Origin: an uncultured Gemmatimonadaceae bacterium
GTDB taxonomy: Bacteria; Gemmatimonadota; Gemmatimonadetes; Gemmatimonadales; Gemmatimonadaceae
Direction of reading: 5' to 3'
Assembly: GCA_963781585.1 (NCBI GenBank)
Contig: CAWAGQ010000006.1
Span: forward strand, 32,001-96,000
Length of the DNA: 64,000 nt
Shown: positions 626 to 64,000 of the stretch, one piece after another
Numbering within the stretch: the first letter of the stretch is position 1
Layout of the letters: the number at the start of each line of letters is the position of its first letter
Translations under genes and position numbers: made by a program
The notes under the pieces: model-generated
The model's input: only the letters and a program-made list of their open reading frames with translations
What the model was told of the DNA's origin: nothing
The model's database searches: none

Positions 626-788
626 GGCGGGAATCCTACCCGACGGCGTGGGCGCCGCCAAGTTGGCTTGTGCGGGAGGCCTTCCAGCGCCGATCGCCGG
701 GCCGACGACAGGGACAGCGCCGGCGCTGCGGCTCGATGTCGTCGGTCTTCCTGCCACCGTGGCGCTCGCGTTACAGTCGTTAGGCTCT

Positions 789-1127
789 TCAGGTCGCGAT
801 GATCTCATTGAGTCCGTCGATCACCGACTCGAGGTCCTCAGGTGAGGCGCGGCCCAGACGTCTCCCCAGGCGTTGGACCGAGAGTGTACGGACCTGACTG
901 ATCTTGACCCAGGACCGCTTCGGCAGGCCGCGGCTCTGCAGTTCCAACGTGAGGGGGAAGCCCGCTCGTTGCGGCTGCGACGTGAGTGCCACCGCGATCA
1001 CTGTCCCGGAGCGTTCATTGAACACGTCGTGACTGAGGATCAGAACCGGTCGCAGTCCCGCCTGCTCGCGCCCGCGCGTGGGATTCAGATTGGCCCACCG
1101 GACCTCCCCTCTCAGTATTCGGGCCAT
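789..1127 (-). CDS. PemK/MazF family endoribonuclease toxin
   Basis: RGEVRWANLNPTRGREQAGLRPVLILS signature; start MARILRG at 1127. Confidence 0.93.
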   Translation of the reverse strand: MARILRGEVRWANLNPTRGREQAGLRPVLILSHDVFNERSGTVIAVALTSQPQRAGFPLTLELQSRGLPKRSWVKISQVRTLSVQRLGRRLGRASPEDLESVIDGLNEIIAT

Positions 1128-1354
1128 GCTTGCAGGTCGGCTCCCAACCCTTCGTCCGCGAGGCGTTGCTCGTCCGCGGCCTCCAGTTTGGCGCATTCGG
1201 CGGCCAATTGACGCCGATCCAGCCGTGCCAAGGTGTCGGTCACCGCGGCTTCGATTGCCTGGCTGCGATTCCGGAACTGTGCCGAGCGCACCAGTCGGTC
1301 GAGCCGCTGGAGGGTGGTGGCGTCGAGGGTGACGGCAACCTTGGCTTTCGGCAT
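1112..1354 (-). CDS. Ribbon-helix-helix antitoxin of the MazF pair
   Basis: KVAVTLD...LDRLV...NRSQAIEAAV RHH pattern, C-terminal WPEY; overlaps the toxin start. Confidence 0.85.
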   Translation of the reverse strand: MPKAKVAVTLDATTLQRLDRLVRSAQFRNRSQAIEAAVTDTLARLDRRQLAAECAKLEAADEQRLADEGLGADLQAWPEY

Positions 1355-8097: not shown

Positions 8098-8961
8098 ATG
8101 AAGACGCCGCGACGGATGTCACAGTGCGCCCGGCTGCTGCAAACGTGCAGCGTGATGTTGCTGGCAGGCGCCGCCGCGGCGCAGACCAGCGGGAACCGTA
8201 TCGTCAGCGGCATGACCGCTGACAGCACAGGACGCGTCGTGCCGTACGTTACAATCTGGTTCGGCGGAACAGCGCGCACAGTGAGTGACGATTCGGGACG
8301 GTTCCGCGTGGAGCTGCCGCGGGAGGCGGGAGTCACCGTGCAGTTGCGGCGGCTGGGTTTCGCCCCGACCGATGTTCGACTCGAACCCGGCGGCGACACC
8401 GCAGTGGCGATCACACTGGTACCGGTGCCGGCAAAACTGGCGGCGCTGCGCGTGCAGGCGGAACAGCAGGTGCGCAGCCTGCAGCTGCACGGGTTCTACG
8501 AGCGAATGGCCGAACAGGAGAAGTGGGGCGGGTCGGGGCAGTTCGTCACGCCGGAGGAGATCGAATTCCGCAAGTCGCCGCGAACCACCCAGTTGCTGGA
8601 CGGCCGGCACGGTGTGGCGCTCAAGGGCGTGGGAAGCTGCAACGTCCAGGTGCAGTGTTTCGTCCCGTTAGGCACGAACAACTGCATCATGCAGATATAC
8701 CTCAATGGGCAACGCCTGGTGCCGACTGGAGGCGCGGGCGCCACCGCCACGGGCGGTATGGTGGCGACGGCGTTCAGGGCCCTGTCGGGCCAGGCGGCCG
8801 TAGTGGGTGGTCTGGGTCCGAACAACGTCGTCTTCCTCGACGATTTCGTGCACCCCTCGGAGCTCGCCGGCATCGAGATCTATCAACGGGCGATGCAGGC
8901 ACCGCCGCAATACCAGATGCTCAATGGCAATTGCGGTGTGATTTTGGTGTGGACCAAATGA
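8098..8961 (+). CDS. Secreted carboxypeptidase-regulatory-like domain + TonB-plug-like protein without barrel
   Basis: GGAGGA RBS; signal (AAAA-Q); SDDSGRF...RRLGFAP; CIMQIYLNG...GIEIYQR...CGVILVWTK; paralog of 2133..2939. Confidence 0.75.
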   Translation: MKTPRRMSQCARLLQTCSVMLLAGAAAAQTSGNRIVSGMTADSTGRVVPYVTIWFGGTARTVSDDSGRFRVELPREAGVTVQLRRLGFAPTDVRLEPGGDTAVAITLVPVPAKLAALRVQAEQQVRSLQLHGFYERMAEQEKWGGSGQFVTPEEIEFRKSPRTTQLLDGRHGVALKGVGSCNVQVQCFVPLGTNNCIMQIYLNGQRLVPTGGAGATATGGMVATAFRALSGQAAVVGGLGPNNVVFLDDFVHPSELAGIEIYQRAMQAPPQYQMLNGNCGVILVWTK

Positions 8962-11734: not shown

Positions 11735-11824
11735 AGCGCCGACACCTGTGCAACGGGTCGCGCGCGCGGCGCTCTGCCTAACGCGCGGCTGTCCCGGTGC
11801 GCCCCCGGTCGTTCGTCCCGATGG

Positions 11825-15378: not shown

Positions 15379-15808
15379 ATGCCCGGTCAATTCCTCCCTC
15401 CCGACCACTCGGCTGGCGACCCGAACACCATCGGCGGCTACATGGCCGTCCATGGACGCCCGGCGGCGTTCGAGGGTTCGGACGGGATGTCGTACAGCGT
15501 GGCCATCGAGGCGGCGCGCAACTACGACGAGGGGCGGCCATGGGGTGCATACTTCCTCTTCCTCCGGTGGCGGCGCATCGGCCCGCAGGGGGTCGAGGGC
15601 CACCTCGAGACCGATTTCCTGGCGTTCGGCCAGTCGGCCGACGCGGCATCCGCGTGCGTTAGGCGCGATGCCGCTCAACAGCGTGCGCGAGGAACTGGAG
15701 CGGCTCATCGCCGCGCGACGGCCGTCCTCGGAGCGACGCTGGTGGGACGCCATGCGGGACGAGGGCGACGACGAGGGCGCGCCGGAGCAACCGGACACTC
15801 CGCAATGA
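15379..15808 (+). CDS. Hypothetical protein interrupted by a +1 frameshift near 15650
   Basis: MPGQFLPPDH...HLETDFLAFGQSADAA continues in the next frame as RALGAMPLNSVREELERLI...WWDAMRD..., ending at a TGA that overlaps the rsgA ATG. Confidence 0.6.
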
Positions 15809-41803: not shown

Positions 41804-43483
41804 ATGCGCTGCCGCGCGGCCTTCGCCGCTCTCGCCCTCAGTGCCTGGAACCCCGCCGTGAGTGCGGCCCAATCTCCCCACATCACCCTGGCCGTGGTGA
41901 ACGCCCGGGTCTGGACCGGCGATGCGCGCCGGCCGTGGGCCGACGCCGTCGCCATCGCCGGTGACCGGATCGCCGCCGTGGGCTCCTCGGCCGAGATCCG
42001 GAAGCTCGCCGGTGAGGCGCGAACGATCGATGCCGGCGGGCAGTTCGTGGTACCGGGGTTCATCGATTCTCACGTGCACTTCCTCGAGGGCGGATTCCGG
42101 CTCTCGTCGGTACAGCTGCGTGACGCCGGTACGCCCGCGGAGTTCGTTCAACGCATCCGGGAATTCGCTGCCACGGTTCCGAAGGGCGCGTGGATCACCG
42201 GCGGCGACTGGGATCATCAGCGTTGGGGCGGGGAGCTTCCCGAGCGCTCGTGGATCGACTCGGTGACCCCCGACAATCCGGTCTGGGTGAATCGTCTCGA
42301 TGGCCACATGGCGCTGGCCAATTCGGCTGCGCTGCGCGCCGCCGCGGTCACGCGCGCCACCGCCGACATCGCGGGGGGCACGATTGTGCGCGATGCGACC
42401 GGCGAGCCCACCGGCATTCTCAAGGACAACGCGCAGAACCTGGTTGAGCGCGTCGTGCCCGCGCCTCCCGCGTTACTCGAGGATCGCGCCCTCGATGCGG
42501 CGATGGCCTACGTGGCGGCGCAGGGGGTGACCTCGGTGCACCACATGGGCACCTGGCATGACCTGGCGGTGTTCGAGCGGGCGCATGCGGCCGGCCGGTT
42601 GCGCACGCGGATCTACGCGGCGGTGCCGCTCGCGACCTGGGCGCGCCTGCGCGACACGGTCGCCGCCCGCGGCCGCGGCGATGAGTGGCTGCGGATCGGC
42701 GCGCTGAAAGGCTTCGTCGATGGGTCGTTAGGCTCGCACACCGCGGCCATGTTCGACCCGTTCACCGATGCGCCCACCGATCGCGGACTGTTCGTGAATA
42801 CGCCCGACGACCTCTATCGGTGGACATCCGGCGCCGACAAGGCCGGGCTCCACGTCATCGTCCACGCCATCGGGGACCGCGCCATCGCCACCCAGCTCGA
42901 CATCTACCAGCGGGTCGAGCAGGAAGACGGTCCGCGCGACCGGCGCTTCCGTATCGAGCACGCGCAGCACATCGCCCCAAGAGATTTTCCGCGCTTCGCG
43001 GCGCTGGGCGTGGTGGCGAGCATGCAACCCTACCACGCCATCGACGACGGACGCTGGGCCGAAAAGGTGATCGGTCCCGAGCGGGCGAAGGGGACATACG
43101 CGTTTCGCACCCTGCTCGATCGCGGCGCCACACTTGCGTTCGGCAGCGACTGGTTCGTGGCGCCGCCAACCCCGCTGGACGGCATCTACGCTGCCGTCAC
43201 CCGCCGCACCCTCGACGACGCGCACCCCGATGGTTGGATTCCCGAACAGAAGATCACGGTCGAGGAGGCGCTCCGCGCGTACACGGCTGGAGGTGCCTTC
43301 GCGTCCTTCGAGGAAGCCGAGAAGGGAGTCCTGGCGCCCGGCAAGCTCGCCGATCTGGTGATGATCGACCACGACCTCACGCGCATTCCAGCGGTGGAGA
43401 TTCGAAGCGCGCATGTGGTCATGACGGTGGTGGGCGGCAGGATTGTCTACCAGCGGCCGAAGGAGTCTCGCGAGTCGAATTGA
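41804..43483 (+). CDS. Amidohydrolase 3 family (YtcJ-like)
   Basis: PGFIDSHVH, HAIGD, RIEHAQ, FGSDW, GKLADLV. Confidence 0.93.
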   Translation: MRCRAAFAALALSAWNPAVSAAQSPHITLAVVNARVWTGDARRPWADAVAIAGDRIAAVGSSAEIRKLAGEARTIDAGGQFVVPGFIDSHVHFLEGGFRLSSVQLRDAGTPAEFVQRIREFAATVPKGAWITGGDWDHQRWGGELPERSWIDSVTPDNPVWVNRLDGHMALANSAALRAAAVTRATADIAGGTIVRDATGEPTGILKDNAQNLVERVVPAPPALLEDRALDAAMAYVAAQGVTSVHHMGTWHDLAVFERAHAAGRLRTRIYAAVPLATWARLRDTVAARGRGDEWLRIGALKGFVDGSLGSHTAAMFDPFTDAPTDRGLFVNTPDDLYRWTSGADKAGLHVIVHAIGDRAIATQLDIYQRVEQEDGPRDRRFRIEHAQHIAPRDFPRFAALGVVASMQPYHAIDDGRWAEKVIGPERAKGTYAFRTLLDRGATLAFGSDWFVAPPTPLDGIYAAVTRRTLDDAHPDGWIPEQKITVEEALRAYTAGGAFASFEEAEKGVLAPGKLADLVMIDHDLTRIPAVEIRSAHVVMTVVGGRIVYQRPKESRESN

Positions 43484-48111: not shown

Positions 48112-50220
48112 CTAGAAGCGAACGATTTCCTGATACGCCGCCACAAAGTCGTCGACCTGCGGCAGAATCGCGTCTTCAAGCCTGGGCGCGTAGCCGACGA
48201 ATGTGTCCGACGACCCGATCCGCCGCACCGGGGCGTCGAGCCAGGCGAAGCACTCATTCGCGATCCGGCTCGCGATCTCCGAGCCGTACCCCCACGACAG
48301 CGCGTCTTCGTATGCCACGATCACCCGGTTCGTTTTCTTCACGGAAGCGAACACCGTCTCGCGGTCCCACGGCGAGAGCGACCGCAGATCGATCACCTCC
48401 ACCGAAATGCCCTCGTCAGCCACCTTGTTCGCGGCCGTGAATGCGCGGTGCACAGTGGCCCCGTACGTCACCAGCGTCACATCCGTCCCCTCCCGCACCA
48501 CCTTCGCCTTTCCGAACGGGATCATGAAGTTCGGTCCGGGATACGCCGCCTTGTTGTACGTCTGCCGGTACAGATGCTTGTGCTCGAGAAACATCACCGG
48601 ATCGTCGCACCGGATGGCCGTTCGCAGGAGCCCGTTCGCGTCGAGCGCCGTGGCCGGGCAGATCACGCGCAGGCCAGGGCACTGGGTGAACAACGAGGCG
48701 CCGGTCTGTGAATGATAGATGGCGCCCCGGATGTAACCGCCGTAGGTCGTCCGCACGACCACCGGCGCGCTGAACGCGTTGTTGGACCGCCAGCGCATCG
48801 TCGCCAGCTCGTTGCGGAGCTGCATGTACGCCGGCCAGATATAGTCGAAGAACTGAATCTCGACCACCGGCTTGAACCCGCGCAGCGCGAGGCCGACCGC
48901 GCGCCCGATGATGTTCGCCTCGGCCAGCGGCGAGTTGTACACGCGATCGGCGCCGAATTCCTTCTGCAGCCCCCACGTCACCTTGAACACCCCGCCTTTC
49001 CCCTTCACCTTGCCGAGGTACTGGTCGCGCGACACGTCGGCCACATCCTGCCCGAAGACGATGATCTTCCCGTCCCGCCGCATCTCGTCGCGCATGCAGG
49101 AATTCAGCAGGTCCACCATCGTGGTCTCGTTCCCGGAGAACTGGGGATCGTCCTCGGTATCGAACTGTTCGCTGGTGGGATCGACATCCGGGGAATAGAC
49201 CCCGACGTACACCGACGCCGGCTCCGGCTGTTCCCTGCCTAACGCATCGTCGGTGGCGGCCTGCACCACGCTCTCCACGTCGCCGCGAATGCGCTCGAGA
49301 TCGGCCTCGGATGCGTGCCCCTCTTTCACCAGCCACGCCGGGTACGTCGTCACCGGATCGCGCGCCGCATCTGCACTCCGCTCCTCCGGCGGCCGATAGA
49401 GCACCTCGTCGTCCGACAGTGAATGCGAATAGGGACGGATCACGTGCGCGTGCACCAGCGCCGGACCCTGTCCGCTCCGCACGTATTGCACCGCGTTCGC
49501 CATCACCGCATGACTGGCGGGGAAGTCGCAGCCGTCGACTTCCTGAATGAACAAGCCCGGGAAGCCTGTCACCAGCTTCGAGATCGAGCCCCCCGCGGTC
49601 TGCACCTCGACCGGGACCGAGATCGCGTACCCGTTGTCCTCGACGAGATACAGCACCGGGAGCTTGAGATTGCACGCGCTGTTGAGCGATTCCCAGAACT
49701 CGCCTTCGCTCGTGGTCCCATCTCCAGCCGACACGAAGACGATCTCGTCCTCGTGCAACCCCACATCGAGTCCGAGTCGCCGGGCGCGCATGATTCCTTC
49801 GGCGCACCCCACCGCGGGCAGGAACTGCGTGCCGGTCGGTGACGACGACGACACGATGTTCAGCGCCTTGTGCCCCCAGTGGCTCGGCATCTGCCGTCCG
49901 CCGGAATTCGGGTCAATGGCGGCACCCACCGCGGAATACAACATCTCTTCCGGCGTCATCCCCAGCGACAGGCAGAGCGCGCGATCCCGGTAGTACGGGA
50001 AGAACCAGTCGTACGATGGTCGGAGGAGCATCCCGGCCGCCGCCAGCACCGCCTCGTGACCCGCGCCGGAAATCTGAAACCAGATCCGGTTCTGACGCTT
50101 GAGCTGGATCTCCTTGTCGTCCAGCCGCCGGGACAGGAGAATCGTGCGGTACGCCGACAACAACTGGTCGCGGCTCAGGTCGGTAACAGTTGGCCGCTGG
50201 GCTCTGAGTCTTGTGGGCAT
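48112..50220 (-). CDS. 2-oxoacid dehydrogenase E1, fused alpha/beta subunits
   Basis: ThDP motif GDGTTSEG...[30 protein letters not shown]. Confidence 0.95.
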
Positions 50221-51053: not shown

Positions 51054-51968
51054 TCAGCCCGCGAGCACCGGCTGAGCGCCCGGTCTTCCGCCTGCATGTG
51101 CCGTGAACAGGCGCGGGCGCTGCGCCCCCTCCCACGCCAGCATCGCGCGCTTCCGCTCAAGGCCCCAACGATAGCCGCCTAACGCACCGGTGTTCCGGAG
51201 TACGCGGTGGCAGGGGATCACGAATGCCACCGGATTCCGCCCCACCGCCGTCCCCACGGCGCGCACCGACTGCGGCGCCCCGATCGCCGCCGCCACGTCC
51301 CCGTACGTCGTCACCGTGCCGGCCGGGACGCGCAGCAAGGCCTCCCACACCTTCACCTGGAAATTCGTCCCGCGCACCAGGAGCGCGAGTGGCACCAGCC
51401 CCGCCCGATCACGGATCTCCAGTGGCGTGAAGATCCGCCGTGCCACGGACGCCGTCGCCCGCGGTCTCTGCTCAATGGTCGCATTGGGCCAGCGTTCAGC
51501 CAGGTCGCCGATGGCGGCCGTCCTGGTGCCCTCGAAGAACGACAGCCCGCAGATGCCGCGGTCGGTGATGGCTAGGAGACACTCACCGAACGGGGTGTCG
51601 TGGAACCCCGCACTGATGCGCAACCCGCTGCCGCTGGTGCGATACTCTCCCGGCGTCACCGCCTCGAGCGTCACGAACAGATCGTGAAGCCGGCCGCCAC
51701 TCGACAGTCCCGCGTCGTACGTGGCGTCCAGAAGATTGCGCGACCGTCGCAACAGATCCTTGGCGTAGCCGAGCGCGAGCATCTGCGAGAACCGCTTGGG
51801 GCTGATGCCCGCCCAGCGCGTGAACAGCCGCTGGAAATGGAATGGGCTCAGGCCGACATGTCGGGCGACCTCATCGAGACTTGGCTGCGCCGGGGAACGC
51901 GCGTCGAGATACCGGATTGCGCGCTCGATGCGATGGTAATCGGTGGTGTTGGATGCGGAGATGGTCAT
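51054..51968 (-). CDS. Ada-like AraC HTH + O6-methylguanine methyltransferase
   Basis: LSPFHFQRLF; GTNFQVKVW...NPVAFVIPCHRV. Confidence 0.93.
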   Translation of the reverse strand: MTISASNTTDYHRIERAIRYLDARSPAQPSLDEVARHVGLSPFHFQRLFTRWAGISPKRFSQMLALGYAKDLLRRSRNLLDATYDAGLSSGGRLHDLFVTLEAVTPGEYRTSGSGLRISAGFHDTPFGECLLAITDRGICGLSFFEGTRTAAIGDLAERWPNATIEQRPRATASVARRIFTPLEIRDRAGLVPLALLVRGTNFQVKVWEALLRVPAGTVTTYGDVAAAIGAPQSVRAVGTAVGRNPVAFVIPCHRVLRNTGALGGYRWGLERKRAMLAWEGAQRPRLFTAHAGGRPGAQPVLAG

Positions 51969-52634: not shown

Positions 52635-54076
52635 TCGCCCTCATGGCATACGGCACGCTGGTCGCTCTTTGCGCCGCCGTCTCGGCTCTCGCGCTGGAGC
52701 CGTTGGTGCGTGCCCGCGGATCGGGAACGCGCTGGATCTGGTGTGCTGCACTGGGTGTGAGCGTGCTCGGATGCGCGGCGGCGATGTTCGTGCCGCGCGA
52801 CGTCGCGAGTGACCACGCGCTTCTCCCTGCGCCGCAAGCGAGGCCTGTCCTCGCAATGCCGCCGGAAGTGTCGAGCCCCAGGTTTTCTGGCTGGGGACGA
52901 CGCTTCGACGACGGTCTCGCGGTCGCCTGGGCGGCGGTGAGCGTCGTGTTGCTCGGTGTCCTGCTCGCCGGGATGCGTCGCATCGATCGGGAACGTCGAC
53001 ACGCGCGGCCGCTCATCGGCAGCGGTGCGACGGTGCTGGTGACCGAACATCTCGGACCCGCGGTCGCTGGGTTCGTGCGGCCTGCGATTCTCGTTCCCCG
53101 CTGGGTGCTTGCGCTGGATGCCGTTCCGCGTCGGCTCCTGCTGACGCATGAGATCGAGCACCTGCGGGCCGGTGATGGGCGGTTGCTCTGGCTGAGCGCG
53201 GTCGTCGCCGCGCTCCTGCCATGGAATCCCGCCGTCTGGCTCATCGCACGGCGTCTCCGCCTGGCGGTGGAGGTTGACTGCGATGTACGCGTGCTGGCCC
53301 GGATCCCCGACGTGCGGGCCTACGGGGATCTCCTCCTCCTGACCGCCGCTCGGCGCGCGCCGGACCGCACGGTCGTGCTGGCCACCGTGCCCGGCGCTTC
53401 CACTGAACTTTCCCGGAGGATTCACGCGATGATCGATCGTCGTCCGCTCTCGAAACGATGGCCCATCGTGCGCATTGCCGTGGCGTTAGGTGCTGTGGTG
53501 GTGGCATGCGAGTCGCCCAGGCCGGAGCCGGTGGCGCCAGTGGACTTCGCCCGTACGCTGACCGGGTCCGCGAACAGCGAGAACCTGCCGAAGGGCTATC
53601 GTGAGATACCCGTCCTCAAGGCGTCCGACTCGGCGTTCGTGGACTATCTCCGGCGGTTTCACCCGGAACTCCTCTCCACGACCTCATCCAGTCCCGTGGT
53701 CCGCGTCTTCACCTATGCGGGTCAATTGGTCCAGGTCGGGCGCCCCGGTCTGTCAGGGCACATGTACGACGGGAGCGGACGGCTGCTGGCGAAGGCCGGC
53801 CTCGACAACATCGACCCGAACGACATCGGGAGCATCGAGGTGGTCAAAGGCCGCAAGCTCCCGGCCCCGCTGAGCGGCGGCTTGATCACCATCTTACTCA
53901 AGGAGCCCGCGGGAGCCTTGCCCGCCAAGCCAACGGCGGAAGGCGTGTGTCAGAACGGCTTCCGGCGTCGCGTCGGCTATGTGCCGGAACGGTGCGGTTC
54001 CCCCACAGTCGTGCTTCGTGAGACAGGCAAGGTCCCCAAGGTACTGCAGAAGGGAGACACCAGCCTCCCTCGGTGA
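52631..54076 (+). CDS. BlaR1-like M56 metallopeptidase with C-terminal plug-like motif
   Basis: GPAVAG, HEIEH, PWNP, EVDCD; IDPNDIGSIEVVKG. Confidence 0.88.
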   Translation: MIALMAYGTLVALCAAVSALALEPLVRARGSGTRWIWCAALGVSVLGCAAAMFVPRDVASDHALLPAPQARPVLAMPPEVSSPRFSGWGRRFDDGLAVAWAAVSVVLLGVLLAGMRRIDRERRHARPLIGSGATVLVTEHLGPAVAGFVRPAILVPRWVLALDAVPRRLLLTHEIEHLRAGDGRLLWLSAVVAALLPWNPAVWLIARRLRLAVEVDCDVRVLARIPDVRAYGDLLLLTAARRAPDRTVVLATVPGASTELSRRIHAMIDRRPLSKRWPIVRIAVALGAVVVACESPRPEPVAPVDFARTLTGSANSENLPKGYREIPVLKASDSAFVDYLRRFHPELLSTTSSSPVVRVFTYAGQLVQVGRPGLSGHMYDGSGRLLAKAGLDNIDPNDIGSIEVVKGRKLPAPLSGGLITILLKEPAGALPAKPTAEGVCQNGFRRRVGYVPERCGSPTVVLRETGKVPKVLQKGDTSLPR

Positions 54077-54406: not shown

Positions 54407-56296
54407 TCAGTAGTCCACCGGCCGCAAATAGGACTCGCCGATCGCCGTGTGACTGAGGAGCGCGACCGTGGGCAGCTTGCGCTTCCAATGCGTTCCCTCG
54501 AGCCGATTGCGGACCAGCTCCACCTCGAACTGGTCGAACCCGCGCGAGCCGAGATCGGCGACTGAATATCCCCACAGCAACCAGTTGAGAATCGTGTCAG
54601 CTTTCGCGTAGCTGATGCCGAGGTCCGTCTCGTCGGTCTGTCCATCGACCAGATCGGCGGTCGCCGGCTTGGTGATGATCTCCTCCGGCACGCCCAGGTG
54701 ACGCGCCAGGGCCCACACCTGCGTTTTGAAGAGATCTCCCAGCGGGTTGATGGGTGGCGAATCGTCGGCGTGCCAGGTGAAGTACCCGAACAGGCGCTCG
54801 GTCTTGTTCCCGGTGCCTAACGGGACGCCCCGTTCGGCCGCCGACAGATCGAACAGGGCGATCATCCGCATCCGGGAGATCACGTTCCCTCGCCGGGTGC
54901 CGTCGGCCGTCGGCTCCTGCGCGAGGTAGCCGTCCACGGCCGCCGTCAGGTCAATGGTGCGGGTTCGGATCCCGAGCGCGTCGATCACCATCTGCGCATG
55001 TGCGAGGCTGTCGGGGCGCGATGTGCGGTAGGGAAGGCGAACCCCGAGCACGTTTTCGGCCCCGATCGCGCGCGCGGCCAGAAACGTCGTCACTGCCGAG
55101 TCCACGCCTCCCGACAAGCCGACTACGGCGCGCTCGAAACCTCGTCGCTGCATCTCGTCGCGAATGAACCGGACGAGCCACTCTTCGACCATGGGTGCGT
55201 CGATGTCGAGCGATGGCGGCTGGCCATGGGCGACACAGGGCACGTGCAGCGCGGGAATGATCCGGGTGGCGTTCGATTGGTGGGAGTCGAAGTCCGTCGG
55301 CGCGCCAGATTCTGTATTGGGGGGGGCCCCCCAGGCTCCTGTTCCTCGCGACGGCCGCTCCTCCGGTGGATCGAACGCCGCCATCCCCCCCTCCCCCCGT
55401 TCCACCGCCTCCATTGCCCGATGCAGGTGCGGCAGCGCCGTGCGCAGATCCGACAGCAGGGGCATATCCGCTCGCGCCCGGGCGATGTCGCCCAGGTCGA
55501 TGGCGAGCGTCACGATTGCCTCGTCAAATGCCGGCGCCCGCACCCGGAGATCGCCACGGGGACCGGCCACGCATGATCCGCCGGCAAAGACCTTCCCGCC
55601 TTCGCTTCCCGCCAGGTTGGCCAGCGACACAAAGACCCCGTGTTCATCGGCCATGTCCCGCACCAGACGCTCCCAACGCGCCACGCTCCCCGGGCCCGGC
55701 ACGCCGTCCAGCGACTGTAGCCCGCGTGCCGGCGCGGCTGAAGCAAGAAAGATGATCTGCGCGTCATCCAGCGCAGCGATCGCGCTCGAGAGGCTGTGCC
55801 AGGCGTCCTCGCAGATCAGCATCGCCGCACGTCCCCACGGCGTGTCGAACGCACGAATGTCGTGCCCCCGCTCGACAAACCGTTCCTCGTCGAACAGGCC
55901 GTACGTCGGGAGGAAGTTCTTGCGATGCACGTGGAGTACCCGAGGCGCCCCCTCGCCAAGCCGGATGTACGCCGAGCTGTTGTACAGCGTGTCGCGCCAC
56001 CGCTCGTAAAAGCCTACCACCACGTCGAGAGGGCGCCTGGCCCGCTCATCGCCGATGCTCTCCGCGTAGGCCGCATCCAGGTCGCGGGCCACCGTCCCCG
56101 CCGTCACCGCCACATCGCGCACTCCCCCTTCGACGAAGTAGCCGCTCAGCACGGTCTCCGGGAAATGCACTACATGCGGATGCGGCGACAGCATGCGCAG
56201 TTGCGCAAATACGTCGCTCAGGCGCGCGAGATTCGCCTCGTAGTCGCCTTTGAACGGGTGCAGCTGTGCTATGGCCAGGGTGAGCAGCCGGGACAT
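54407..56296 (-). CDS. nadE: Glutamine-dependent NAD+ synthetase
   Basis: Nitrilase-fold triad FPE / RKNFLP / ICED plus GLSGGVDS, GTGNKTE, DLFKT. Confidence 0.95.
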   Translation of the reverse strand: MSRLLTLAIAQLHPFKGDYEANLARLSDVFAQLRMLSPHPHVVHFPETVLSGYFVEGGVRDVAVTAGTVARDLDAAYAESIGDERARRPLDVVVGFYERWRDTLYNSSAYIRLGEGAPRVLHVHRKNFLPTYGLFDEERFVERGHDIRAFDTPWGRAAMLICEDAWHSLSSAIAALDDAQIIFLASAAPARGLQSLDGVPGPGSVARWERLVRDMADEHGVFVSLANLAGSEGGKVFAGGSCVAGPRGDLRVRAPAFDEAIVTLAIDLGDIARARADMPLLSDLRTALPHLHRAMEAVERGEGGMAAFDPPEERPSRGTGAWGAPPNTESGAPTDFDSHQSNATRIIPALHVPCVAHGQPPSLDIDAPMVEEWLVRFIRDEMQRRGFERAVVGLSGGVDSAVTTFLAARAIGAENVLGVRLPYRTSRPDSLAHAQMVIDALGIRTRTIDLTAAVDGYLAQEPTADGTRRGNVISRMRMIALFDLSAAERGVPLGTGNKTERLFGYFTWHADDSPPINPLGDLFKTQVWALARHLGVPEEIITKPATADLVDGQTDETDLGISYAKADTILNWLLWGYSVADLGSRGFDQFEVELVRNRLEGTHWKRKLPTVALLSHTAIGESYLRPVDY

Positions 56297-56516: not shown

Positions 56517-58634
56517 GTGGCCCGTGGCGTATGGTCTCCGGTTTTGACCTGTGGCCTATGGCCCTGGCCCCATATTTGTCTCGTGTCACTCCCTCGAATT
56601 CTGCCCGCGGCACTCAGGCGGCCGGCCCGCGCTATCCGCCCGGCGCTGTTCCTCGTCACCGCGCTGTCGTCGGCAACCGCGCAGCAATCTCGACCCTCCT
56701 CAGGAGAGCCGTGGCAGATCATCCAACCGCTCCAGTCCACCTTCGTCTTCGCGCGTGACGGCTCGCTCATCGGCGAGATCGGTCGTGAATGGCGGTCGAG
56801 CATCTCCATCCGCACCCTGCCGAAATACGTCCCCGAGGCGTTCATAGCGGTCGAGGATCAGCGGTTCTATCAGCACGACGGCGTCGACATCGTAGGACTC
56901 GCGGGTGCCATCAAGGACGCCGTGCGCGGGAGTCCGCGCGGCGCCAGTACCATCACGCAGCAGCTGGTGGGCAACATGCACCCCGACATCATCGATCGCC
57001 GCGACATCAGCCTCGGGCGCAAGCTCCGCGAGCAGGCCGCTGCGAGAGAGATGGAGAAGCACTACACGAAGGAGCAGATCCTCGAGGCGTATCTCAACCA
57101 GCTCGACTTCGGCCACCGCTGGTTCGGTATCGAAACCGCCGCTCGCCACTATTTCGGCAAGGGCGCGGCGCAGCTGTCGGTTGCGGAGGCGGCGACGCTG
57201 GCCGCCATCATCAATGGTCCCAGCTACTACGATCCGGTCACGCACCCCGATCGCGCCCGCGGCCGGCGCAATCTCGTCCTGTCGCTCATGGCTGACCAGA
57301 AGTACCTGACCTCCGAACAAGCGGCCGCCGCGCGCCGCGATCCGCTCGAGATCGCGAAGGACGGAGGCTACGCCGCTCCCGCTCCGTACTTCGTGGACGT
57401 GGTGCGCGTTCAGGCCGAGCGCGCCGGCGTGCCGGTTACCGCCGGCGGCTATCGCGTCTACACGACGCTCGATCCCTCGGTGCAGCGTGCCGCCGTCACC
57501 GCCCTGGTCGACGGAACGCTCGAGATCGAGCGTCAGCCAGGCTATCGGCATCCCACGTTTCAGCACCGCACACCCGGGAGGAGCGACTATTTGCAGGGCG
57601 CGGTAGTCGCCCTCGATCCGTTCACCGGTGACGTGCGGGCGCTGGTCGGCGGTCGCGACTACGCGGCCTCGCCATTCGACCGGGCCGTTGATGCGATGCG
57701 CCAGCCCGGTTCGGCGTTCAAGCCGATCGTCTATGCGACCGCCATCGCCGACAGCCTCCCTCCGAATCTCGTCGTGTCAGACACCGCCATCGCCATCCCA
57801 TTGCCGAACCACACGGTCTACAAGCCGGAAAACTCGGACGGCGCGTACCTCGGCAACCTGACAATGCGCGAAGCCCTCGCGCGCTCGCGCAACGTCGTCG
57901 CCGTGCAGATCGGCCAGCGGGTTGGTATGGAATCGGTGATCGCGACGGCGAGAAGCATGGGAATCACGGCGCCCATCGAGCCCTATCCCTCCAGTGCGAT
58001 CGGCGCCGCGGCGGTGCAGCCGCTCGATCTCGTGGCTGCCTACGCGACGATCGCGAACCTCGGCGCGCGCGTCGAGGCACGGTTCATCACGTATATCGAG
58101 GACGCCGGGGGACACACCGTCTGGCAGAACCCCATTGTCCAGCCGCAGGAGGTGCTCGACCCACAGGTCGCCTTCATTGTCCGTGACATGATGCGGGACG
58201 TGGTGGAGCGCGGCACCGCCACCGCGGTCCGGCGCTTCCTTCCGGAGTCGGTGCCGGTGGCCGGCAAGACCGGCACGACCAACGACAACGCCGACGTCTG
58301 GTTCGTGGGCATGACGCCCGATCTCGTGGCCGGCGTGTGGCTCGGCTTCGATCGACCCGCTCCCATTGCACCCGGTGCCGCGGGCGGCACGCTGGCCGCC
58401 CCGATCTGGGGCAGGATGCTGGCCCTCGCCGGCGAGACCGGCGCCGGGGCGCCGTGGTCGCCGCCGGTGCAGCTGGTGACCGCCGAACTCGATCGCGACA
58501 CTGGCCAGCCCGTGACCGTCCTTACTCCGCCAGACCGCCGCTACACGGAGTACTTCCTCCCCGGAACCGAGCCGCTCTTCCTGCACCTCGACTCCTGGTC
58601 GCTCTTTCGTGGTCGTGCGCTCCAGCCTCGTTAG
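56517..58634 (+). CDS. Class A penicillin-binding protein (PBP1A family)
   Basis: EDQRFYQH, GASTITQQ, RKLRE; SAFK, SRN, KTG; start uncertain. Confidence 0.95.
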   Translation: MARGVWSPVLTCGLWPWPHICLVSLPRILPAALRRPARAIRPALFLVTALSSATAQQSRPSSGEPWQIIQPLQSTFVFARDGSLIGEIGREWRSSISIRTLPKYVPEAFIAVEDQRFYQHDGVDIVGLAGAIKDAVRGSPRGASTITQQLVGNMHPDIIDRRDISLGRKLREQAAAREMEKHYTKEQILEAYLNQLDFGHRWFGIETAARHYFGKGAAQLSVAEAATLAAIINGPSYYDPVTHPDRARGRRNLVLSLMADQKYLTSEQAAAARRDPLEIAKDGGYAAPAPYFVDVVRVQAERAGVPVTAGGYRVYTTLDPSVQRAAVTALVDGTLEIERQPGYRHPTFQHRTPGRSDYLQGAVVALDPFTGDVRALVGGRDYAASPFDRAVDAMRQPGSAFKPIVYATAIADSLPPNLVVSDTAIAIPLPNHTVYKPENSDGAYLGNLTMREALARSRNVVAVQIGQRVGMESVIATARSMGITAPIEPYPSSAIGAAAVQPLDLVAAYATIANLGARVEARFITYIEDAGGHTVWQNPIVQPQEVLDPQVAFIVRDMMRDVVERGTATAVRRFLPESVPVAGKTGTTNDNADVWFVGMTPDLVAGVWLGFDRPAPIAPGAAGGTLAAPIWGRMLALAGETGAGAPWSPPVQLVTAELDRDTGQPVTVLTPPDRRYTEYFLPGTEPLFLHLDSWSLFRGRALQPR

Positions 58635-60132
58635 GCTCGGAACTCCACTCTGCTGGTTCCTGCTGGCAGGGCTCACGGGGGCCTGCCGGGACAATCCCGC
58701 CGGCCCCCCGCCTGACGCCACACTTACCCTCGCCACGTCCGGCAATCCCGGTGTGGTTCGAACGGCGGTCGCGCCGGTTCCGACGTTTGTCCTCCGAGAT
58801 GCCGCGGGCCGGGTGCTGGCCGGATTCCCCGTCTCGATTGCCGTGGCTGCGGGCGGCGGCACCCTTCGCGATGCTCCGCGCAATACCGCCGCCGGTCCGA
58901 CTCCGGTGGGCGAGTGGATCCTCGGCGCGAGCGCCGGGCACAATGCGCTCGTCGTCAGGATCGGCGCCCTCCCCCCTCTCCGCATCGAAGTCACCGCCTT
59001 GCCCGATCTGCCGGCGGACATGACGCCGGAATTCGGAGCGGATCAGACAGGCTTCGCGGGCGACAACCTCCCGCAGTCCCTCGCCGCAAAGGTCTTCGAC
59101 CGCTTCGGCAACGGCGTGCCCGGCGTCGTCGTCACGTTTGCAGCGGAGTCCGGAGGGGGTAGCATCTCGGAATCCACCGTGACGACGGATGGAAATGGCA
59201 TCGCGGGAGGTCCGACCTGGCACCTGGGACGCAACGGCGGAGACCAGGTCGTGATCGCCACCGCCGGCGCGTTGACGACGACCTTCACCGCCACCATTCG
59301 ATCCAGCTTCGATCCGGTCGTTCGCTTCATTGGATCCGCACCGTCGCCAACCATCGCCGCGGCGTTCGACTACGCGGTTCAGCGTGTGCATGCGGCGGTC
59401 ACCAGCGACATCCCCGATGTCGCCCTCCAGGGCTTCGATCTCGCACGCTGCGGGATCTCGGCTCCATCGATCACCGAGGTCGTGGACGACATGGTCATCT
59501 ATGCCGTGGTAGCTCCGATCGATGGCATCGGGGGGATCGTGGGCTCCGCCGGCCCGTGCCTGCAGCGCACGCTGTCGGGCTACACCGTCATCGGTGTCAT
59601 GCGATTCGACGAGGCCGACCTTGACGCGCTCGCGCTGACCCAGCGACTCAACGCCGTCGTCCTCCACGAGATGCTGCATCTGGTCGGCGTTGGCATCCTC
59701 TGGAATACCGTTGGGCTCCTCGCCGGAAGCGGGACCGGCGATCCGCGATTCCTCGGCAACCTGGCTGCAGAGCGCTGCGTCCTGCTCGGCGGAGCTGAAC
59801 CGTGCGGCGTCGGGAGCGTTCCGGTCGAGAACATCGGCGGCCCCGGAACCGTGGATCTCCACTGGCGAGAGTCGGTCTTCCACTCCGAACTGATGACGAG
59901 CTTTCTCGAGCCGACGCCCAACATGCCCCTGTCGGAGATGACCCTCGCGTCGCTGGCCGATATTGGCCTCACTCCCAATTACCACGCGGCAGACCCTTAC
60001 ATGGTCCCCGCTTCGTCTCCGGGCATCGCGCCACGGCTGTCCGGCGTTCCGGGCGCTCCCTGGGAGACGATCCAACCGCCGCGTTTCGAGATCACTCCGG
60101 AAGGCTGGGTCCGTCCGATCCGTTCGAGATGA
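58609..60132 (+). CDS. Lipoprotein with Ig-like domains and leishmanolysin-like (M8) zinc protease domain
   Basis: Lipobox-like TGAC; DRFGNGVPGVVVTF Ig repeat; HEMLH, HWRE..F..ELM, SLADIG. Confidence 0.8.
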   Translation: MVVRSSLVRLGTPLCWFLLAGLTGACRDNPAGPPPDATLTLATSGNPGVVRTAVAPVPTFVLRDAAGRVLAGFPVSIAVAAGGGTLRDAPRNTAAGPTPVGEWILGASAGHNALVVRIGALPPLRIEVTALPDLPADMTPEFGADQTGFAGDNLPQSLAAKVFDRFGNGVPGVVVTFAAESGGGSISESTVTTDGNGIAGGPTWHLGRNGGDQVVIATAGALTTTFTATIRSSFDPVVRFIGSAPSPTIAAAFDYAVQRVHAAVTSDIPDVALQGFDLARCGISAPSITEVVDDMVIYAVVAPIDGIGGIVGSAGPCLQRTLSGYTVIGVMRFDEADLDALALTQRLNAVVLHEMLHLVGVGILWNTVGLLAGSGTGDPRFLGNLAAERCVLLGGAEPCGVGSVPVENIGGPGTVDLHWRESVFHSELMTSFLEPTPNMPLSEMTLASLADIGLTPNYHAADPYMVPASSPGIAPRLSGVPGAPWETIQPPRFEITPEGWVRPIRSR

Positions 60133-61386: not shown

Positions 61387-61541
61387 GGAGCGGGAGTTTT
61401 TGAGTGTGCTAGGAGTACCCTCGGGTACGATGCGCCGTGAAGCGACGTTTCACGAGGGTGCGGAGGCGATTGGGCCTCAAGGCACAAGCGACCCGGGAAT
61501 CCTCCCGGGTCGCTTGGTTCGGCTGCGCGGCGGGTGCGGGT

Positions 61542-64000
61542 TCAGGCCACGCCGGCCTCCACCTCCTCTGCTTCCACGCGGGCGTCGGCCCCGGTCTCGT
61601 GTTCCGGCACGAGCGCAATGCGCAGCACGTCCGAGAGGGTTTCGACCGGATGGAAGGTGAGCTGCTGTCGCACCTCCTCGGGCACGTCCTCGAGGTCGCC
61701 CTCGTTGTCCTTGGGCAGAATGATGTGCATGATGCCGGCGCGATGCGCGCCCAGCACCTTCTCCTTCAGTCCTCCGATCGGCAGTACCCGCCCGCGCAGC
61801 GTGATCTCCCCGGTCATTGCCACATCGCGCCGGACCGGACGGCCCGACATCTCGGAGACGAGGGCGGTTGCGATGGCGATACCGGCTGACGGGCCATCCT
61901 TGGGGATGGCGCCGGCGGGTACGTGAATGTGGGCCTCCATCGCTCCTTCCAGCCGCTGGGCCGGGATACCTAACGACGACGCATTGTTGGTGGCATAAGT
62001 CAGCGCCGCGCGGGCGCTTTCCTTCATGACGTCGCCGAGCTGCCCGGTCAGAATCAGCGTCATCGGTCCCGACTGGGGCGCAGAATCGCCGTTGTCGGAC
62101 GACGGCGGGCGCTGGCGGCGGCGAATGGACGCCTCGACGAACATGATGTCGCCCCCCATCGGCGTGTAGTACATGCCGGTGGCGATGCCGACCTCGTTCT
62201 TCTCGTTGGCCCGCTCCGGATGGACCTTGGGCCGCCCGAGGAGCTGTCGCACCTCGTCCGCGTCCACCTGATTGTCGGCGATAATGCCGCCGTCACCGGC
62301 GGCTACCCGGCGCGCCAGTTTCCTGCACACCGCGCCGATCTGCCGCTCGAGCTGACGAACGCCGCTCTCGCGCGTGTAGTTCGTCACGACCGACATCACC
62401 GCGTCGTCGGCGAACCCCACGCCCTTGTCGCCCAGGCCGTTTTCCTCGAGCTGGCGCGGGATCAGGTACTTCTTCGCGATCTCCGCCTTCTCCCGCTCGG
62501 TGTAGCCGGAGAACTCCACCATCTCCATCCGGTCGAACAACGGCCCGGGGATGTTCTGCATGAAATTCGCGGTGGCGACGAACAGCACCTCGCTGAGGTC
62601 GAACGGCACGCCCAGATAGTGATCGGTGAAGCTGTCGTTCTGCGCCGGGTCGAGCACCTCGAGCAGGGCCGCCGAGGGGTCGCCCTGGAACGACACGCCG
62701 AGCTTGTCGACTTCGTCGAGGAGGAAGACCGGATTCTTCGTCCCGGCCTGCTTCATACCCTGGATGATGCGTCCCGGCATGGCCCCGACGTACGTCCGGC
62801 GGTGTCCGCGGATGTCGGCTTCGTCGCGCGCGCCACCTAACGATACTCGGACGTACTGGCGGCCGAGTGACCGCGCGATCGACTTTGCGATCGAGGTCTT
62901 GCCCACACCGGGAGGACCGACAAACAGCAGGATGGGTCCCTTGGCCATTGCCCGTGCCTTGGCCTCACGCGCGTCGGTGATCGTCCGGTCTTCACCGTTT
63001 CCGCCCACCGGCGATGCCGTCGGCTCGTCGCCGCCCTTTGCTCGACCCGCTGCCGGGAATTCTCCCGTCCGGATGACCTCCTCCGCCTGCTGGCGGGCGC
63101 GGAGCTGGCGCACCGCCAGAAACTCCAGGACGCGGTCCTTCACGTCCTGCAGCCCGTAGTGGTCCTCGTCCAGAATCGTGGCGGCGTGCGTCAGATCGAG
63201 CTGATCGTCCGACCGCTTGCTCCAGGGCAACTCGGCGATCCACTCGAGGTAGGTGCGGATGACTTGTGCTTCCATCGACTCGCGCCCGGTACGCTCCAGG
63301 CGACCAAGCTCGCGTTCCACTTCGGCCCGCGCCTCTTTGGGAAGGTCGAGCGCCCGCAGCTTCTCGCGCAGCTCCTCAACCTCCTTTGCCTGATCGTCGT
63401 CACCCAGCTCCTTCTGGATCGCCTTCATCTGCTCGCGCAGGAACATCTCGCGCTGGCGTTCCCCCAGTTCCTCCTGCACCTGCGACTTGATCTCCTCCTG
63501 CGCCTCGAGCATCCCGATCTGCCTCTGGACGTGAACCAGAACTCGGCGAAGCCGCTCCTCCACGCTCAGCGTCTCCAGGAGCCCCTGCTTCTCCGGAACC
63601 GGGAGCTCGATGTACCCCGCAACCAGATCGGCGAATCGGCCCGGGTCCTCCACGGAGTCGAGCACCTGGTGCACGACCTCCTCGGGAAGACCGCGCTTCT
63701 CACCGAGTTCCGCAGCCCGCTCGCGCGTTTCCTTGTGAAGCGCCTCGAACGCGGAATCGGCCTCGTTCAGCGGAGTCATCTCTTCGGTCGGCATGACCAC
63801 CGCGTTGAGGTATCCTTCGTTCATCGTGTATTGCAGGGAGGTGGCGCGTTGCTCGCCTTGCAGAAGAAGCTGCACGCCTCCCAGCCCGCGCTGGATCTGG
63901 CCGATGCGTGCGATCACACCCATCGAGTAGAGAATTTCCGGGGCGGGCTCGTCGGTATTGTCGCGCTGCGCCACGGCGAAGACGAGCCGATCCCCCTTGA
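61542..64000 (-). CDS. lon: ATP-dependent protease La, 5' end outside the window
   Basis: GPPGVGKTS, LLDEVDK, PKDGPSAG, GLKEK; frame open to the window edge. Confidence 0.97.
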   Translation of the reverse strand, partial: KGDRLVFAVAQRDNTDEPAPEILYSMGVIARIGQIQRGLGGVQLLLQGEQRATSLQYTMNEGYLNAVVMPTEEMTPLNEADSAFEALHKETRERAAELGEKRGLPEEVVHQVLDSVEDPGRFADLVAGYIELPVPEKQGLLETLSVEERLRRVLVHVQRQIGMLEAQEEIKSQVQEELGERQREMFLREQMKAIQKELGDDDQAKEVEELREKLRALDLPKEARAEVERELGRLERTGRESMEAQVIRTYLEWIAELPWSKRSDDQLDLTHAATILDEDHYGLQDVKDRVLEFLAVRQLRARQQAEEVIRTGEFPAAGRAKGGDEPTASPVGGNGEDRTITDAREAKARAMAKGPILLFVGPPGVGKTSIAKSIARSLGRQYVRVSLGGARDEADIRGHRRTYVGAMPGRIIQGMKQAGTKNPVFLLDEVDKLGVSFQGDPSAALLEVLDPAQNDSFTDHYLGVPFDLSEVLFVATANFMQNIPGPLFDRMEMVEFSGYTEREKAEIAKKYLIPRQLEENGLGDKGVGFADDAVMSVVTNYTRESGVRQLERQIGAVCRKLARRVAAGDGGIIADNQVDADEVRQLLGRPKVHPERANEKNEVGIATGMYYTPMGGDIMFVEASIRRRQRPPSSDNGDSAPQSGPMTLILTGQLGDVMKESARAALTYATNNASSLGIPAQRLEGAMEAHIHVPAGAIPKDGPSAGIAIATALVSEMSGRPVRRDVAMTGEITLRGRVLPIGGLKEKVLGAHRAGIMHIILPKDNEGDLEDVPEEVRQQLTFHPVETLSDVLRIALVPEHETGADARVEAEEVEAGVA

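Follow-up and report, generated by a model that had tools for sequence, protein, structure and literature searches.

The window analysed here is a 64-kb stretch of DNA from an uncultured Gemmatimonadaceae bacterium (C6:32001-96000 of the source assembly, G000, which holds 5.72 Mb in 17 contigs at 67% GC), and the element in question is the octamer CGTTAGGC. The window contains 16 exact copies, 10 on the forward strand and six on the reverse, and the assembly as a whole contains 1442 (724 forward and 718 reverse), about one per 4 kb. The close relatives of the Lon protein encoded in the window are labelled Gemmatimonadaceae or Gemmatimonadales. A preliminary description of the window, made from its letters and open reading frames (ORFs), had proposed that the octamer is a DNA-level signal. 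This is supported, against a codon or protein artefact, by codon-aware null models, the use of frames and strands, the spacing of the copies and the conservation of silent sites. The explanation favoured here, tentatively and at somewhat less than an even chance, is that CGTTAGGC serves as a self tag resembling an uptake sequence, recognised by a putative reader protein. Two features that the preliminary description missed are the identity of the octamer with the R' core site of the integron attC sites found in the same bacterial order and its patchy phylogenetic distribution.

Abundance, reading frames and spacing of the octamer

A third-order Markov model of the assembly predicts 50.6 copies against the 1442 observed, a 28.5-fold excess and the highest observed/expected ratio among all 8-mers with at least 200 copies. 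The density lies between 0.19 and 0.34 per kb on each of the 17 contigs. A maximal-order Markov model built from 7-mers gives no excess (1416.6 expected), but this null is uninformative because the 7-mer sub-words share the same excess. None of the 24 one-mismatch variants exhibits a comparable excess; the two commonest, CGTCAGGC (1519 copies) and CGTTCGGC (987 copies), are merely GC-richer words. The flanks of the octamer hold little information beyond codon periodicity.

Genes were called as long ORFs scored by codon usage, which gave a crude and under-called set of 3543 genes covering 76.7% of the DNA. These coding sequences contain 717 sense and 310 antisense copies, whereas synonymous shuffling within genes (20 shuffles) predicts 14.0 +/- 3.1 and 29.2 +/- 7.9 and shuffling of codon order (20 shuffles) predicts 12.3 and 17.3, respectively. 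The over-representation estimated from base composition in the preliminary description therefore survives both codon-aware nulls, and it extends beyond the window to every contig and to several relatives. Within the window, dinucleotide-preserving shuffles contain a mean of 1.09 copies (standard deviation 1.03, largest 4), with none of 100 reaching 16. Chance and codon artefact are ruled out by the dinucleotide, synonymous and codon-order shuffles.

Every stop-free reading frame of CGTTAGGC is in use, and the 1442 copies fall into the following site classes.

NCG-TTA-GGC, sense: 681 copies
Outside gene calls: 356 copies
G-CCT-AAC-G, antisense: 247 copies
GC-CTA-ACG, antisense: 62 copies
CGT-TAG, sense: 59 copies
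C-GTT-AGG-C, sense: 35 copies
GCC-TAA, antisense: 2 copies

A direct count at gene ends shows that the word supplies 61 of 1103 TAG stops and 39 of 269 TAA stops. Among the peptides that could accommodate it, the word occupies 681 of 4365 [SPTA]LG sites (15.6%), 248 of 1024 PN[VADEG] sites (24%), 62 of 2209 [SCRG]LT sites (2.8%) and 36 of 3410 VR[LPHQR] sites (1%). Since occupancy differs by frame in this way, the surplus of sense copies reflects the frames that are affordable and not a preference for a strand. The preliminary description had held that the word is written into genes through rare TTA codons, and 681 of the 1274 TTA codons in called genes (53%) do lie within CGTTAGGC; a further 85 are in CG-TTA-GGT and 46 in TG-TTA-GGC. 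Despite these 1274 codons, there is a single tRNA-Leu(UAA) gene among the 63 tRNA genes of the assembly.

Between called genes (gaps of 400 bp or less) the density is 0.275 per kb, compared with 0.252 genome-wide. The gaps between tandem genes contain 22 sense and 18 antisense copies, which rules out a strand preference at the level of transcription or RNA. The orientation of the word agrees with the local GC skew in 53% of sites. Contig C4 has a skew switch near 575 kb; there, 121 of 158 copies in leading-strand genes (77%) and 30 of 44 in lagging-strand genes (68%) are sense, and unannotated sites number 34 leading and 28 lagging. Replication polarity of the Chi or KOPS type is ruled out by the skew agreement and the C4 counts, as the earlier statement that the word is not polarised in that manner had held.

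The copies are also more evenly spaced than random placement would produce. In 300 simulations, each drawing equal numbers per class from the full set of compatible sites, short and long gaps were both commoner than in the assembly.

Gaps <200 bp: 20 observed, 69.7 +/- 7.2 simulated
Gaps <500 bp: 68 observed, 171.5 +/- 11 simulated (minimum 142)
Gaps 1-4 kb: 730 observed, 590 +/- 17 simulated
Gaps >=8 kb: 140 observed, 184.5 +/- 7.7 simulated

A few very long gaps bring the overall coefficient of variation (CV) to 1.0; the same even spacing is found in G009, the relative richest in the word, with a gap CV of 0.83. There are 19 motif-free stretches longer than 18 kb in the source assembly, and those with the lowest GC content (0.62-0.65) stand out from the genome value of 0.67, which suggests that they are acquired islands.

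The copies in the window, all located at the positions reported in the preliminary description, are listed below with one variant that differs from the word by a single letter.

778..785 (+): CGTTAGGC, antisense to called gene 188-808 (-), G-CCT-AAC-G (Pro-Asn)
8666..8673 (+): CGTTAGGC, sense CCG-TTA-GGC (Pro-Leu-Gly), gene 8041-8961, CarboxypepD_reg domain protein
11776..11783 (-): CGTTAGGC, outside gene calls
15657..15664 (+): CGTTAGGC, sense C-GTT-AGG-C (Val-Arg, rare GTT and AGG), ORF 15373-16761
21283..21290 (+): CGTTAGGC, sense ACG-TTA-GGC, copA-like P-type ATPase gene 19935-22577
24030..24037 (-): CGTTAGGC, outside gene calls
28309..28316 (+): CGTTAGGC, CCG-TTA-GGC, cusA/AcrB-family gene 27198-30620
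29761..29768 (+): CGTTAGGC, CCG-TTA-GGC, second copy within the cusA/AcrB-family gene 27198-30620
34691..34698 (+): CGTTAGGC, GCG-TTA-GGC, Proton_antipo_M gene 33466-35703
38702..38709 (+): CGTTAGGC, C-GTT-AGG-C, hyfB-like gene 37290-40232
42726..42733 (+): CGTTAGGC, TCG-TTA-GGC, amidohydrolase gene 41804-43483
45387..45394 (-): CGTTAGGC, antisense to ORF 44221-46173 (+), G-CCT-AAC-G (Pro-Asn)
49237..49244 (-): CGTTAGGC, GCG-TTA-GGC, E1 dehydrogenase gene 48112-50361 (-)
51177..51184 (-): CGTTAGGC, GCG-TTA-GGC, gene 51054-51968 (-), common to the C2 homeolog and G009
53484..53491 (+): variant CGTTAGGT, GCG-TTA-GGT, one letter off the word
54815..54822 (-): CGTTAGGC, CCG-TTA-GGC, nadE 54407-56332 (-)
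58629..58636 (+): CGTTAGGC, CGT-TAG-GC, giving the TAG stop of the PBP1A-like gene 56517-58634

With the ORF-based gene calls, NCG-TTA-GGC accounts for nine of the 16 copies, C-GTT-AGG-C for two, antisense G-CCT-AAC-G for two and a TAG stop for one, with the remaining two outside gene calls. The earlier reading of the frames holds for the xCG-TTA-GGC majority, the two CCT-AAC copies and the PBP1A stop codon, and it left the two GTT-AGG copies unlisted. Six further GTTAGG cores that it reported (4605, 6808, 50341, 53484, 61968 and 62835) are present at those positions; those at 61968 and 62835 are CGTTAGGT-class variants in lon. The identities given to the copA-, cusA-, hyfB-, E1-, nadE- and PBP1A-like host genes were confirmed by Pfam, as was a lon-like gene. 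For the frame called sdhA, the ORF submitted was that of the opposite strand, which matched no Pfam family, and the sdhA frame itself was not checked. The 980-aa ORF at 37290-40232 (+) joins a Proton_antipo_M domain (hyfB/nuoL-like) to a Complex1_49kDa domain (similar to NuoD or a large hydrogenase subunit).

Conservation of sites and distribution among relatives

The source assembly is a mixed bin in which two related genomes have been binned together: approximately 580 kb is present twice at 88-90% identity, and the stated contamination is 7.19%. The homeologous contig pairs are C5/C8 (338 kb), C2/C6 (181 kb) and C17/C11 (60 kb), and the second copy of window positions 44001-64000 is C2:89107-109072, at 89% identity. 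When only non-overlapping high-scoring segment pairs (HSPs) of at least 1500 bp are used, 588 kb align at 88.3% identity. The word is present in both copies at 130 sites and in one copy at 54, a retention of 83%, compared with 44.8% (32457 of 72404) for control octamers in the same alignment. One-sided sites are mostly a single transition away from the word, with CGTTAGGT (13) the commonest decay product, followed by CGTCAGGC (10). Identity per position is 0.93-0.99 inside the word, including its three silent positions, and drops to 0.71-0.83 at the flanking third codon positions, so that conservation is confined to exactly 8 bp. This footprint, together with flanks at background level, rules out that the dispersed copies belong to a longer repeat or a mobile element. 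For the 67 of the 130 shared sites located within HSPs of 4000 bp or more and no closer than 1500 bp to the HSP ends, flanking identity is 0.893, against 0.894 for conserved control octamers; the word is thus not simply sitting in conserved DNA.

A set of 30 related genomes was searched together with the source assembly (31 in total), with the reversed word as a control. Eight relatives exhibit raised counts.

G009: 6360 copies, 1.25 per kb, the richest
G001: 915 copies, same genus as G000, 64% complete
G005: 605 copies
G015: 516 copies
G014: 460 copies
G030: 345 copies, different family
G013: 194 copies, weakly raised
G016: 173 copies, weakly raised

The remaining 22 relatives have 65 copies or fewer, under the reversed-word control. 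An evenly drawn set of 200 additional genomes of the phylum has a clear excess in four more genera of the family to which the window belongs (G114, G124, G158 and G186). Within genus g67 of family f2, three genomes (G166, G204 and G211) exceed the control and two fall under it (G165 with 337 copies against 575, and G145 with 181 against 452). None of the 62 surveyed genomes of families f4-f12 has an excess. Copies in G204, G030, G013 and G016 are dispersed on both strands. Word-rich genomes occur in three families of one order of the Gemmatimonadota. In the cultured Gemmatirosa kalamazoonensis KBS708, 30 copies lie within the first 50 kb of plasmid 1 and 20 within that of plasmid 2, with no copies of the reversed control in these stretches.

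The phylogenetic distribution is patchy within this order. In a midpoint-rooted tree of four genes (E1, nadE, PBP1A and Lon; 19 rows, with partial data for G014, G007 and G015), the rich genomes stand apart from each other: G009 is placed beside the poor G007, G005 beside the poor G003 and G013 beside the poor G008, and the rich G014 groups with the poor G012 and G017. The word-poor G008 supplies one row in several comparisons, and G078, G117 and G196 are poor rows of the survey; no conclusion rests on these genomes alone. The word is the top 8-mer in samples of G009 (199 copies in 182.6 kb) and G005 (27 copies in 160 kb). A dispersed and abundant 8-mer that could be a dialect of the word was not found in 200-kb samples of the word-poor G003 and G017. 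In the G005 sample (C2 and C13), CGTTTGGC, one letter off the word, has 30 copies in 160 kb where 5.7 are expected (5-fold). These are scattered over both strands, usually after a T, and could represent either a dialect of the word or something unrelated.

The origin of individual sites was followed in codon alignments of the four syntenic genes in 19 genome rows. Where a [SPTA]-Leu-Gly motif is conserved, the leucine is encoded by CTC or CTG in poor genomes and by TTA in rich ones. Codons 504-506 of nadE read CCG-TTA-GGC in G000, its C2 homeolog, G009, G005 and G016, and nine of the 12 other genomes in the table have a CCN-CTS-GGN triplet there. The E1 site (window 49237) carries the word in G000, the C2 homeolog and G009; the 14 other genomes have a CTN leucine codon, followed in 13 of them by a codon for a residue other than glycine, mostly GCG for alanine, and the change from Ala-Leu-Ala to Ala-Leu-Gly is common to G000 and G009. 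Further changes in G009 include GTG-CGC to GTT-AGG at lon 287-290 and 538-541, CTG or CTC to CTA, and the amino-acid replacement of VMA by CLT at E1 286-288. Each site needs several changes that differ in kind, which points to recognition of the word as a whole and not to a repair bias acting on single mismatches. Word sites in nadE, E1 and lon are shared across genera. With 3, 4, 10, 2, 2, 2, 1 and 1 word sites per genome in the four genes, a small sample, the rich genera appear to share sites more often than expected by chance.

Identity with the integron attC core

The octamer contains GTTAGGC, which fits the core site GTTRRRY of integron recombination sites as given, with its inverse core RYYYAAC, in PMC3053210. 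In poor relatives the few copies are clustered on one strand. Contig C95 of G021 has 26 same-strand copies between 188 and 23663, in steps of approximately 400-700 bp with a few longer gaps, and similar runs are present at G021:C80, G021:C43 and G019:C3. Each copy on G021:C95 forms the end of a 90-103-nt element that starts with GCCTAAC (GTCTAAC in one of the six folded), and the bottom strand of these elements folds into a bulged attC hairpin at -27 to -31 kcal/mol; only this array was folded. The run on G019:C3 has the same conserved 3'-half context by sequence. The G021 runs are typical integron cassette arrays. When attC 3' halves were located through an anchor outside the octamer, 31 of 36 ended in CGTTAGGC and five in CGTTAGAC, and the dispersed octamer thus has the same sequence as the R' box of attC in this order. 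By our own arithmetic, an arbitrary 8-mer would match the attC octamer in either orientation with a probability of approximately 3 in 100,000, or somewhat more given the many famous motifs with which a match could be made.

Integrase genes above the NCBIfam cut-off are present in 18 of the 31 genomes, many of them word-poor. Among the word-rich genomes, searches found no integrase in G005 (93% complete), G015 (79%) or G013 (99%), and in G009 it is present only as three out-of-frame pieces. An intact intI is found in the source assembly at C7:185885-186829 (-), scoring 434.5 bits against a cut-off of 265. Only three loci in its 5.7 Mb combine an inverse core and a core into a hairpin. This scarcity and the lack of flank conservation rule out that the dispersed copies are solo cassettes or attC sites.

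The intact intI belongs to an integron at C7:168001-188000, with attC-like sites at 170123, 172173, 175436 and 182755 on the same strand as the integrase gene. Its cassettes encode BrnA-antitoxin and PIN proteins as well as two Ser/Thr kinases that contain PD40 repeats. Two identical mobile units (C7:172353-174475 and 182952-185074) each pair a gene for a 301-aa tyrosine recombinase with a downstream gene for an IS91-family Y2 transposase (Zn_Tnp_IS91 and Y2_Tnp), with the octamer located between the two genes in both units. The recombinase gene recurs at C13:309021-309851 with identical match scores. The large cassette arrays of the two relatives (G021:C95:1-24000, C80:1-5900 and C43; G019:C3:900-7800) have very uniform attC sites, and a partial intI at C80:6419-7300 adjoins the G021:C80 array. 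The G021:C95 array is chromosomal, since the same contig carries comEC at 42 kb. Searches of the attC arrays against Rfam returned no match except one tRNA, and blastn of a G021 attC site against a plasmid collection returned none.

Possible readers and interpretation of the octamer

Candidate reader families were profiled across the 31 genomes, or across smaller sets where noted.

Vsr: 4 of 31 genomes (G000, G002, G007 and G028), three of the four word-poor
C5 methylase: 4 of 31, none in G009, G005, G014 or G001
N6_Mtase: 14 of 31 at E <= 1e-10, none in G000, G005, G014, G015 or G030
RecC: 1 of 31 (G014 only)
AddAB-like PDDEXK_1 pair: only G003 among G000, G009, G005, G003 and G007
ComEC: 30 of 31
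PilM: 31 of 31
DprA: 5 of 5 genomes searched
HHH_3 (ComEA-type): 5 of 5 genomes searched
One pilin candidate, full-length: G016, G002, G025, G029 and G019 only, not G009, G005 or G014

The AddAB-like pair of G003 (C2:295772-299604) consists of two ORFs of approximately 1100 aa with PDDEXK_1; the source assembly has only weak PDDEXK_1 matches, in ORFs of approximately 560 aa. From these matches the order seems to be largely without RecBCD. A C5 cytosine methylase gene followed directly by a Vsr gene, a pair of the Dcm-Vsr type, lies at C7:477177-478451 of the source assembly, within a word-free, lower-GC stretch of 24.6 kb (C7:457886-482458). The octamer clusters of G000 contained no reader gene with copies of its own word around it, an arrangement sought by analogy with the Ssn study (PMC11893778). 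The densest of these clusters (C6:212984-213854) has a beta-lactamase-fold fragment and a Gly-zipper protein as neighbours. Another, at C13:313-317 kb, adjoins a partial integrase match (C13:299277-299408) and the tyrosine-recombinase gene at C13:309021-309851, and its intergenic, same-strand copies are read as resembling a cassette array.

The tentative interpretation of CGTTAGGC as an uptake-sequence-like tag is drawn from its being a whole-octamer word that is strand-symmetric, evenly spaced and actively maintained. A putative sequence-specific protein would read the whole octamer on DNA irrespective of strand, and the maintaining force would act per stretch of DNA and not per codon. The supposed mechanism is that established for the uptake sequences of the Neisseriaceae and Pasteurellaceae: cells equipped with type IV pili and ComEC would favour word-bearing DNA for uptake and subsequent recombination. 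Word-bearing alleles would thereby displace word-less ones (molecular drive), and the word would enter all the reading frames that protein function allows. Two parts of this account are inferences, put forward with less than even confidence: a reader drawn from the machinery of uptake or recombination, and a bias in uptake itself. The analogy with uptake sequences or with HIP1 drawn in the preliminary description stands for abundance, strand symmetry, frame flexibility, even spacing and silent-site conservation. Its suggestion of methylation-linked repair does not, as neither Vsr, C5 methylase nor N6_Mtase tracks the word (N6_N4_Mtase, PF01555, was not searched).

Several observations weigh against the uptake-like interpretation. 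Literature searches found no uptake bias or competence for any member of the Gemmatimonadota. Inverted pairs acting as terminators are typical of the Neisseria DNA uptake sequence (DUS), and hairpin-forming inverted pairs of the word are nearly absent. Intergenic DNA is no richer in the word than coding DNA, which is not what pure drive against coding constraint would predict. No trace of elevated identity, as would follow recent exchange, was seen around the 67 shared sites. None of the families profiled (IntI, Vsr, C5, N6_Mtase, ComEC, PilM, RecC, PDDEXK_1, DprA, HHH_3 and one pilin) tracks the word, in a search that left out N6_N4_Mtase and Ssn-type nucleases. ComEC, PilM, DprA and HHH_3 fail to explain the patchy distribution because they are equally present in word-poor relatives, and the tested pilin has full-length matches only outside G009, G005 and G014. 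The identity with the integron core either stays a coincidence or needs an added assumption.

That identity is taken up directly by two other explanations. An unlikely one is that CGTTAGGC is the integron core site in a second use, in which a reader of the attC R' box biases acquisition or recombination toward cassette-bearing DNA. Such a reader could be derived from, or have co-evolved with, tyrosine-recombinase recognition and may perhaps be mobile, and as a by-product it would have driven the integron site into thousands of chromosomal places in the lineages that carry it. If true, this would link DNA self-recognition with cassette capture and explain both the sequence identity and the patchy distribution. 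The other, also unlikely, is that a protein of the tyrosine-recombinase type (integron integrase, a Xer-family paralogue or a derivative) reads the word and that the copies are tied to integron biology through cassette capture or exchange. The copies of poor relatives, which are the 3' ends of genuine attC sites in arrays, the folding of the G021 elements, the dominance of CGTTAGGC among attC 3' halves, the low probability of a chance match, the fit to the core and inverse-core scheme seen in PMC3053210 and the intact intI beside attC-like sites in G000 all argue for it. The dispersed copies, however, lack a partner inverse core and hairpin, their flanks are unlike attC (C precedes the word in only 12% of copies), and cassette insertion at these sites would break conserved genes. 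The integrase is also frequent in poor genomes and missing or broken in several rich ones, and published genomic integrase targets (attG) need only GWT (bioRxiv 10.1101/2022.09.11.507474).

The explanations that appeal to other DNA-binding functions account for different parts of the pattern. A chromosome-organising or housekeeping protein that needs approximately one site per few kb, with sites kept by ordinary selection and not by drive, would agree with the even spacing and few long gaps, the equal coding and intergenic density, the strand symmetry and the presence of the word on the Gemmatirosa kalamazoonensis megaplasmids. It is nevertheless improbable: very weak selection per site would have to outweigh the use of the rarest codons and occasional amino-acid replacements, the word is missing from sister genera, and there is no candidate protein. 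The target of a DNA methyltransferase, raised in frequency by modification-linked repair or selection, would share hyper-abundance and quasi-regular spacing with the methylase-recognised HIP1 (PMC5861425 and PMC13756078), but the word is non-palindromic, its sites arise by transitions and transversions at several positions, a pattern that a single-mismatch repair bias would not yield, and the Vsr, C5 and N6_Mtase matches do not follow the rich genomes (PF01555 again lying outside the search); this explanation is given a low probability. A Chi-like site that halts a helicase-nuclease and stimulates recombination, protecting self DNA at breaks or on entry, is very unlikely. The most over-represented octamer, conserved in resident DNA and missing from islands, is what such a site would resemble, and both orientations would be needed for two-ended breaks. 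RecC is restricted to G014, however, the AddAB-like pair to the word-poor G003 among five genomes, no replication-linked orientation bias is present, and a 28-fold excess on rare codons is well beyond that of known Chi sites. Action at the level of RNA or translation, for example a regulatory TTA codon like that of bldA in Streptomyces, would fit the concentration of TTA codons in the word and the single tRNA-Leu(UAA) gene. In-frame TTA is found in only 681 of the 1442 copies, antisense, GTT-AGG, CTA-ACG, stop-codon and intergenic copies are all used, gaps between tandem genes show no sense bias and the footprint covers all eight bases, and this explanation, with almost no probability left to it, is regarded here as already refuted.

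Among known systems, the closest likeness to the uptake-like interpretation is with the DUS of the Neisseriaceae and the uptake signal sequence (USS) of the Pasteurellaceae. These are likewise short words without palindromic symmetry, present on both strands at 0.2-1.3 per kb, placed in several coding frames at a cost in codons and amino acids, more evenly spaced than chance, kept at orthologous sites, common to several genera and missing from foreign islands. The octamer differs from them in that sister genera of its carriers lack the word instead of having a dialect, that terminator-like inverted pairs are almost absent and that density is no higher between genes. HIP1 (GCGATCGC) of the cyanobacteria is also a hyper-abundant octamer of one phylum-level group, quasi-regular and conserved by selection according to the sources named above, but it is a palindrome with cognate methylases, whereas CGTTAGGC is asymmetric (reverse complement GCCTAACG) and none of the methylase and Vsr families searched follows its distribution. 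The attC R' box, bound and cut by IntI, is identical in sequence, but the dispersed copies are without inverse core, hairpin or cassette, they lie inside conserved genes and the integrase does not follow their abundance. Chi and KOPS/AIMS are over-represented 8-mers of resident DNA as well; the word has no replication polarity, and the rich genomes searched are mostly without RecC (G014 excepted) and without an AddAB-like pair. The abundant NTS/SRM repeats, read by Ssn single-strand nucleases that modulate transformation (PMC11893778), are hairpin-forming repeats of approximately 30 bp, unlike this bare 8-mer, which has no hairpin and lies mostly in genes (Ssn homologues were not searched).

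Literature searches on the word, uptake sequences, HIP1, integrons and transformation in the Gemmatimonadota found no description of the word, supplements being outside their scope. To our knowledge, self tags with demonstrated function are known from only two families, the Neisseriaceae and the Pasteurellaceae, and the function of HIP1 is still debated after thirty years. CGTTAGGC may represent a third, unrelated case resembling a self tag, in a soil phylum that is abundant and has been little studied. The match to the integron core was unexpected; if causal, it would join DNA uptake specificity and integron cassette traffic, which have hitherto been separate fields. The sharp 8-bp footprint is a useful property, the contrast between rich and poor sister genera offers a route to the reader gene, and Gemmatirosa kalamazoonensis KBS708, as a cultured carrier, makes the question testable at the bench. 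The word also marks resident against foreign DNA in these genomes, and in metagenomes with Gemmatimonadota it could be of help for binning and for detecting horizontal transfer.

Other over-represented words were encountered during these counts. In the 200-kb sample of G017, rotated 8-mers of ACTAGTG and AGCCAAT are over-represented and are read as heptamer tandems. In the source assembly, the heptamer AAAGGCC and its variants form 36 tandem arrays of at least two exact units, with up to 14 units (for example C5:172128-172225, C2:97252-97293 and C4:471313-471340), and these arrays are the source of the second over-represented 8-mer family.

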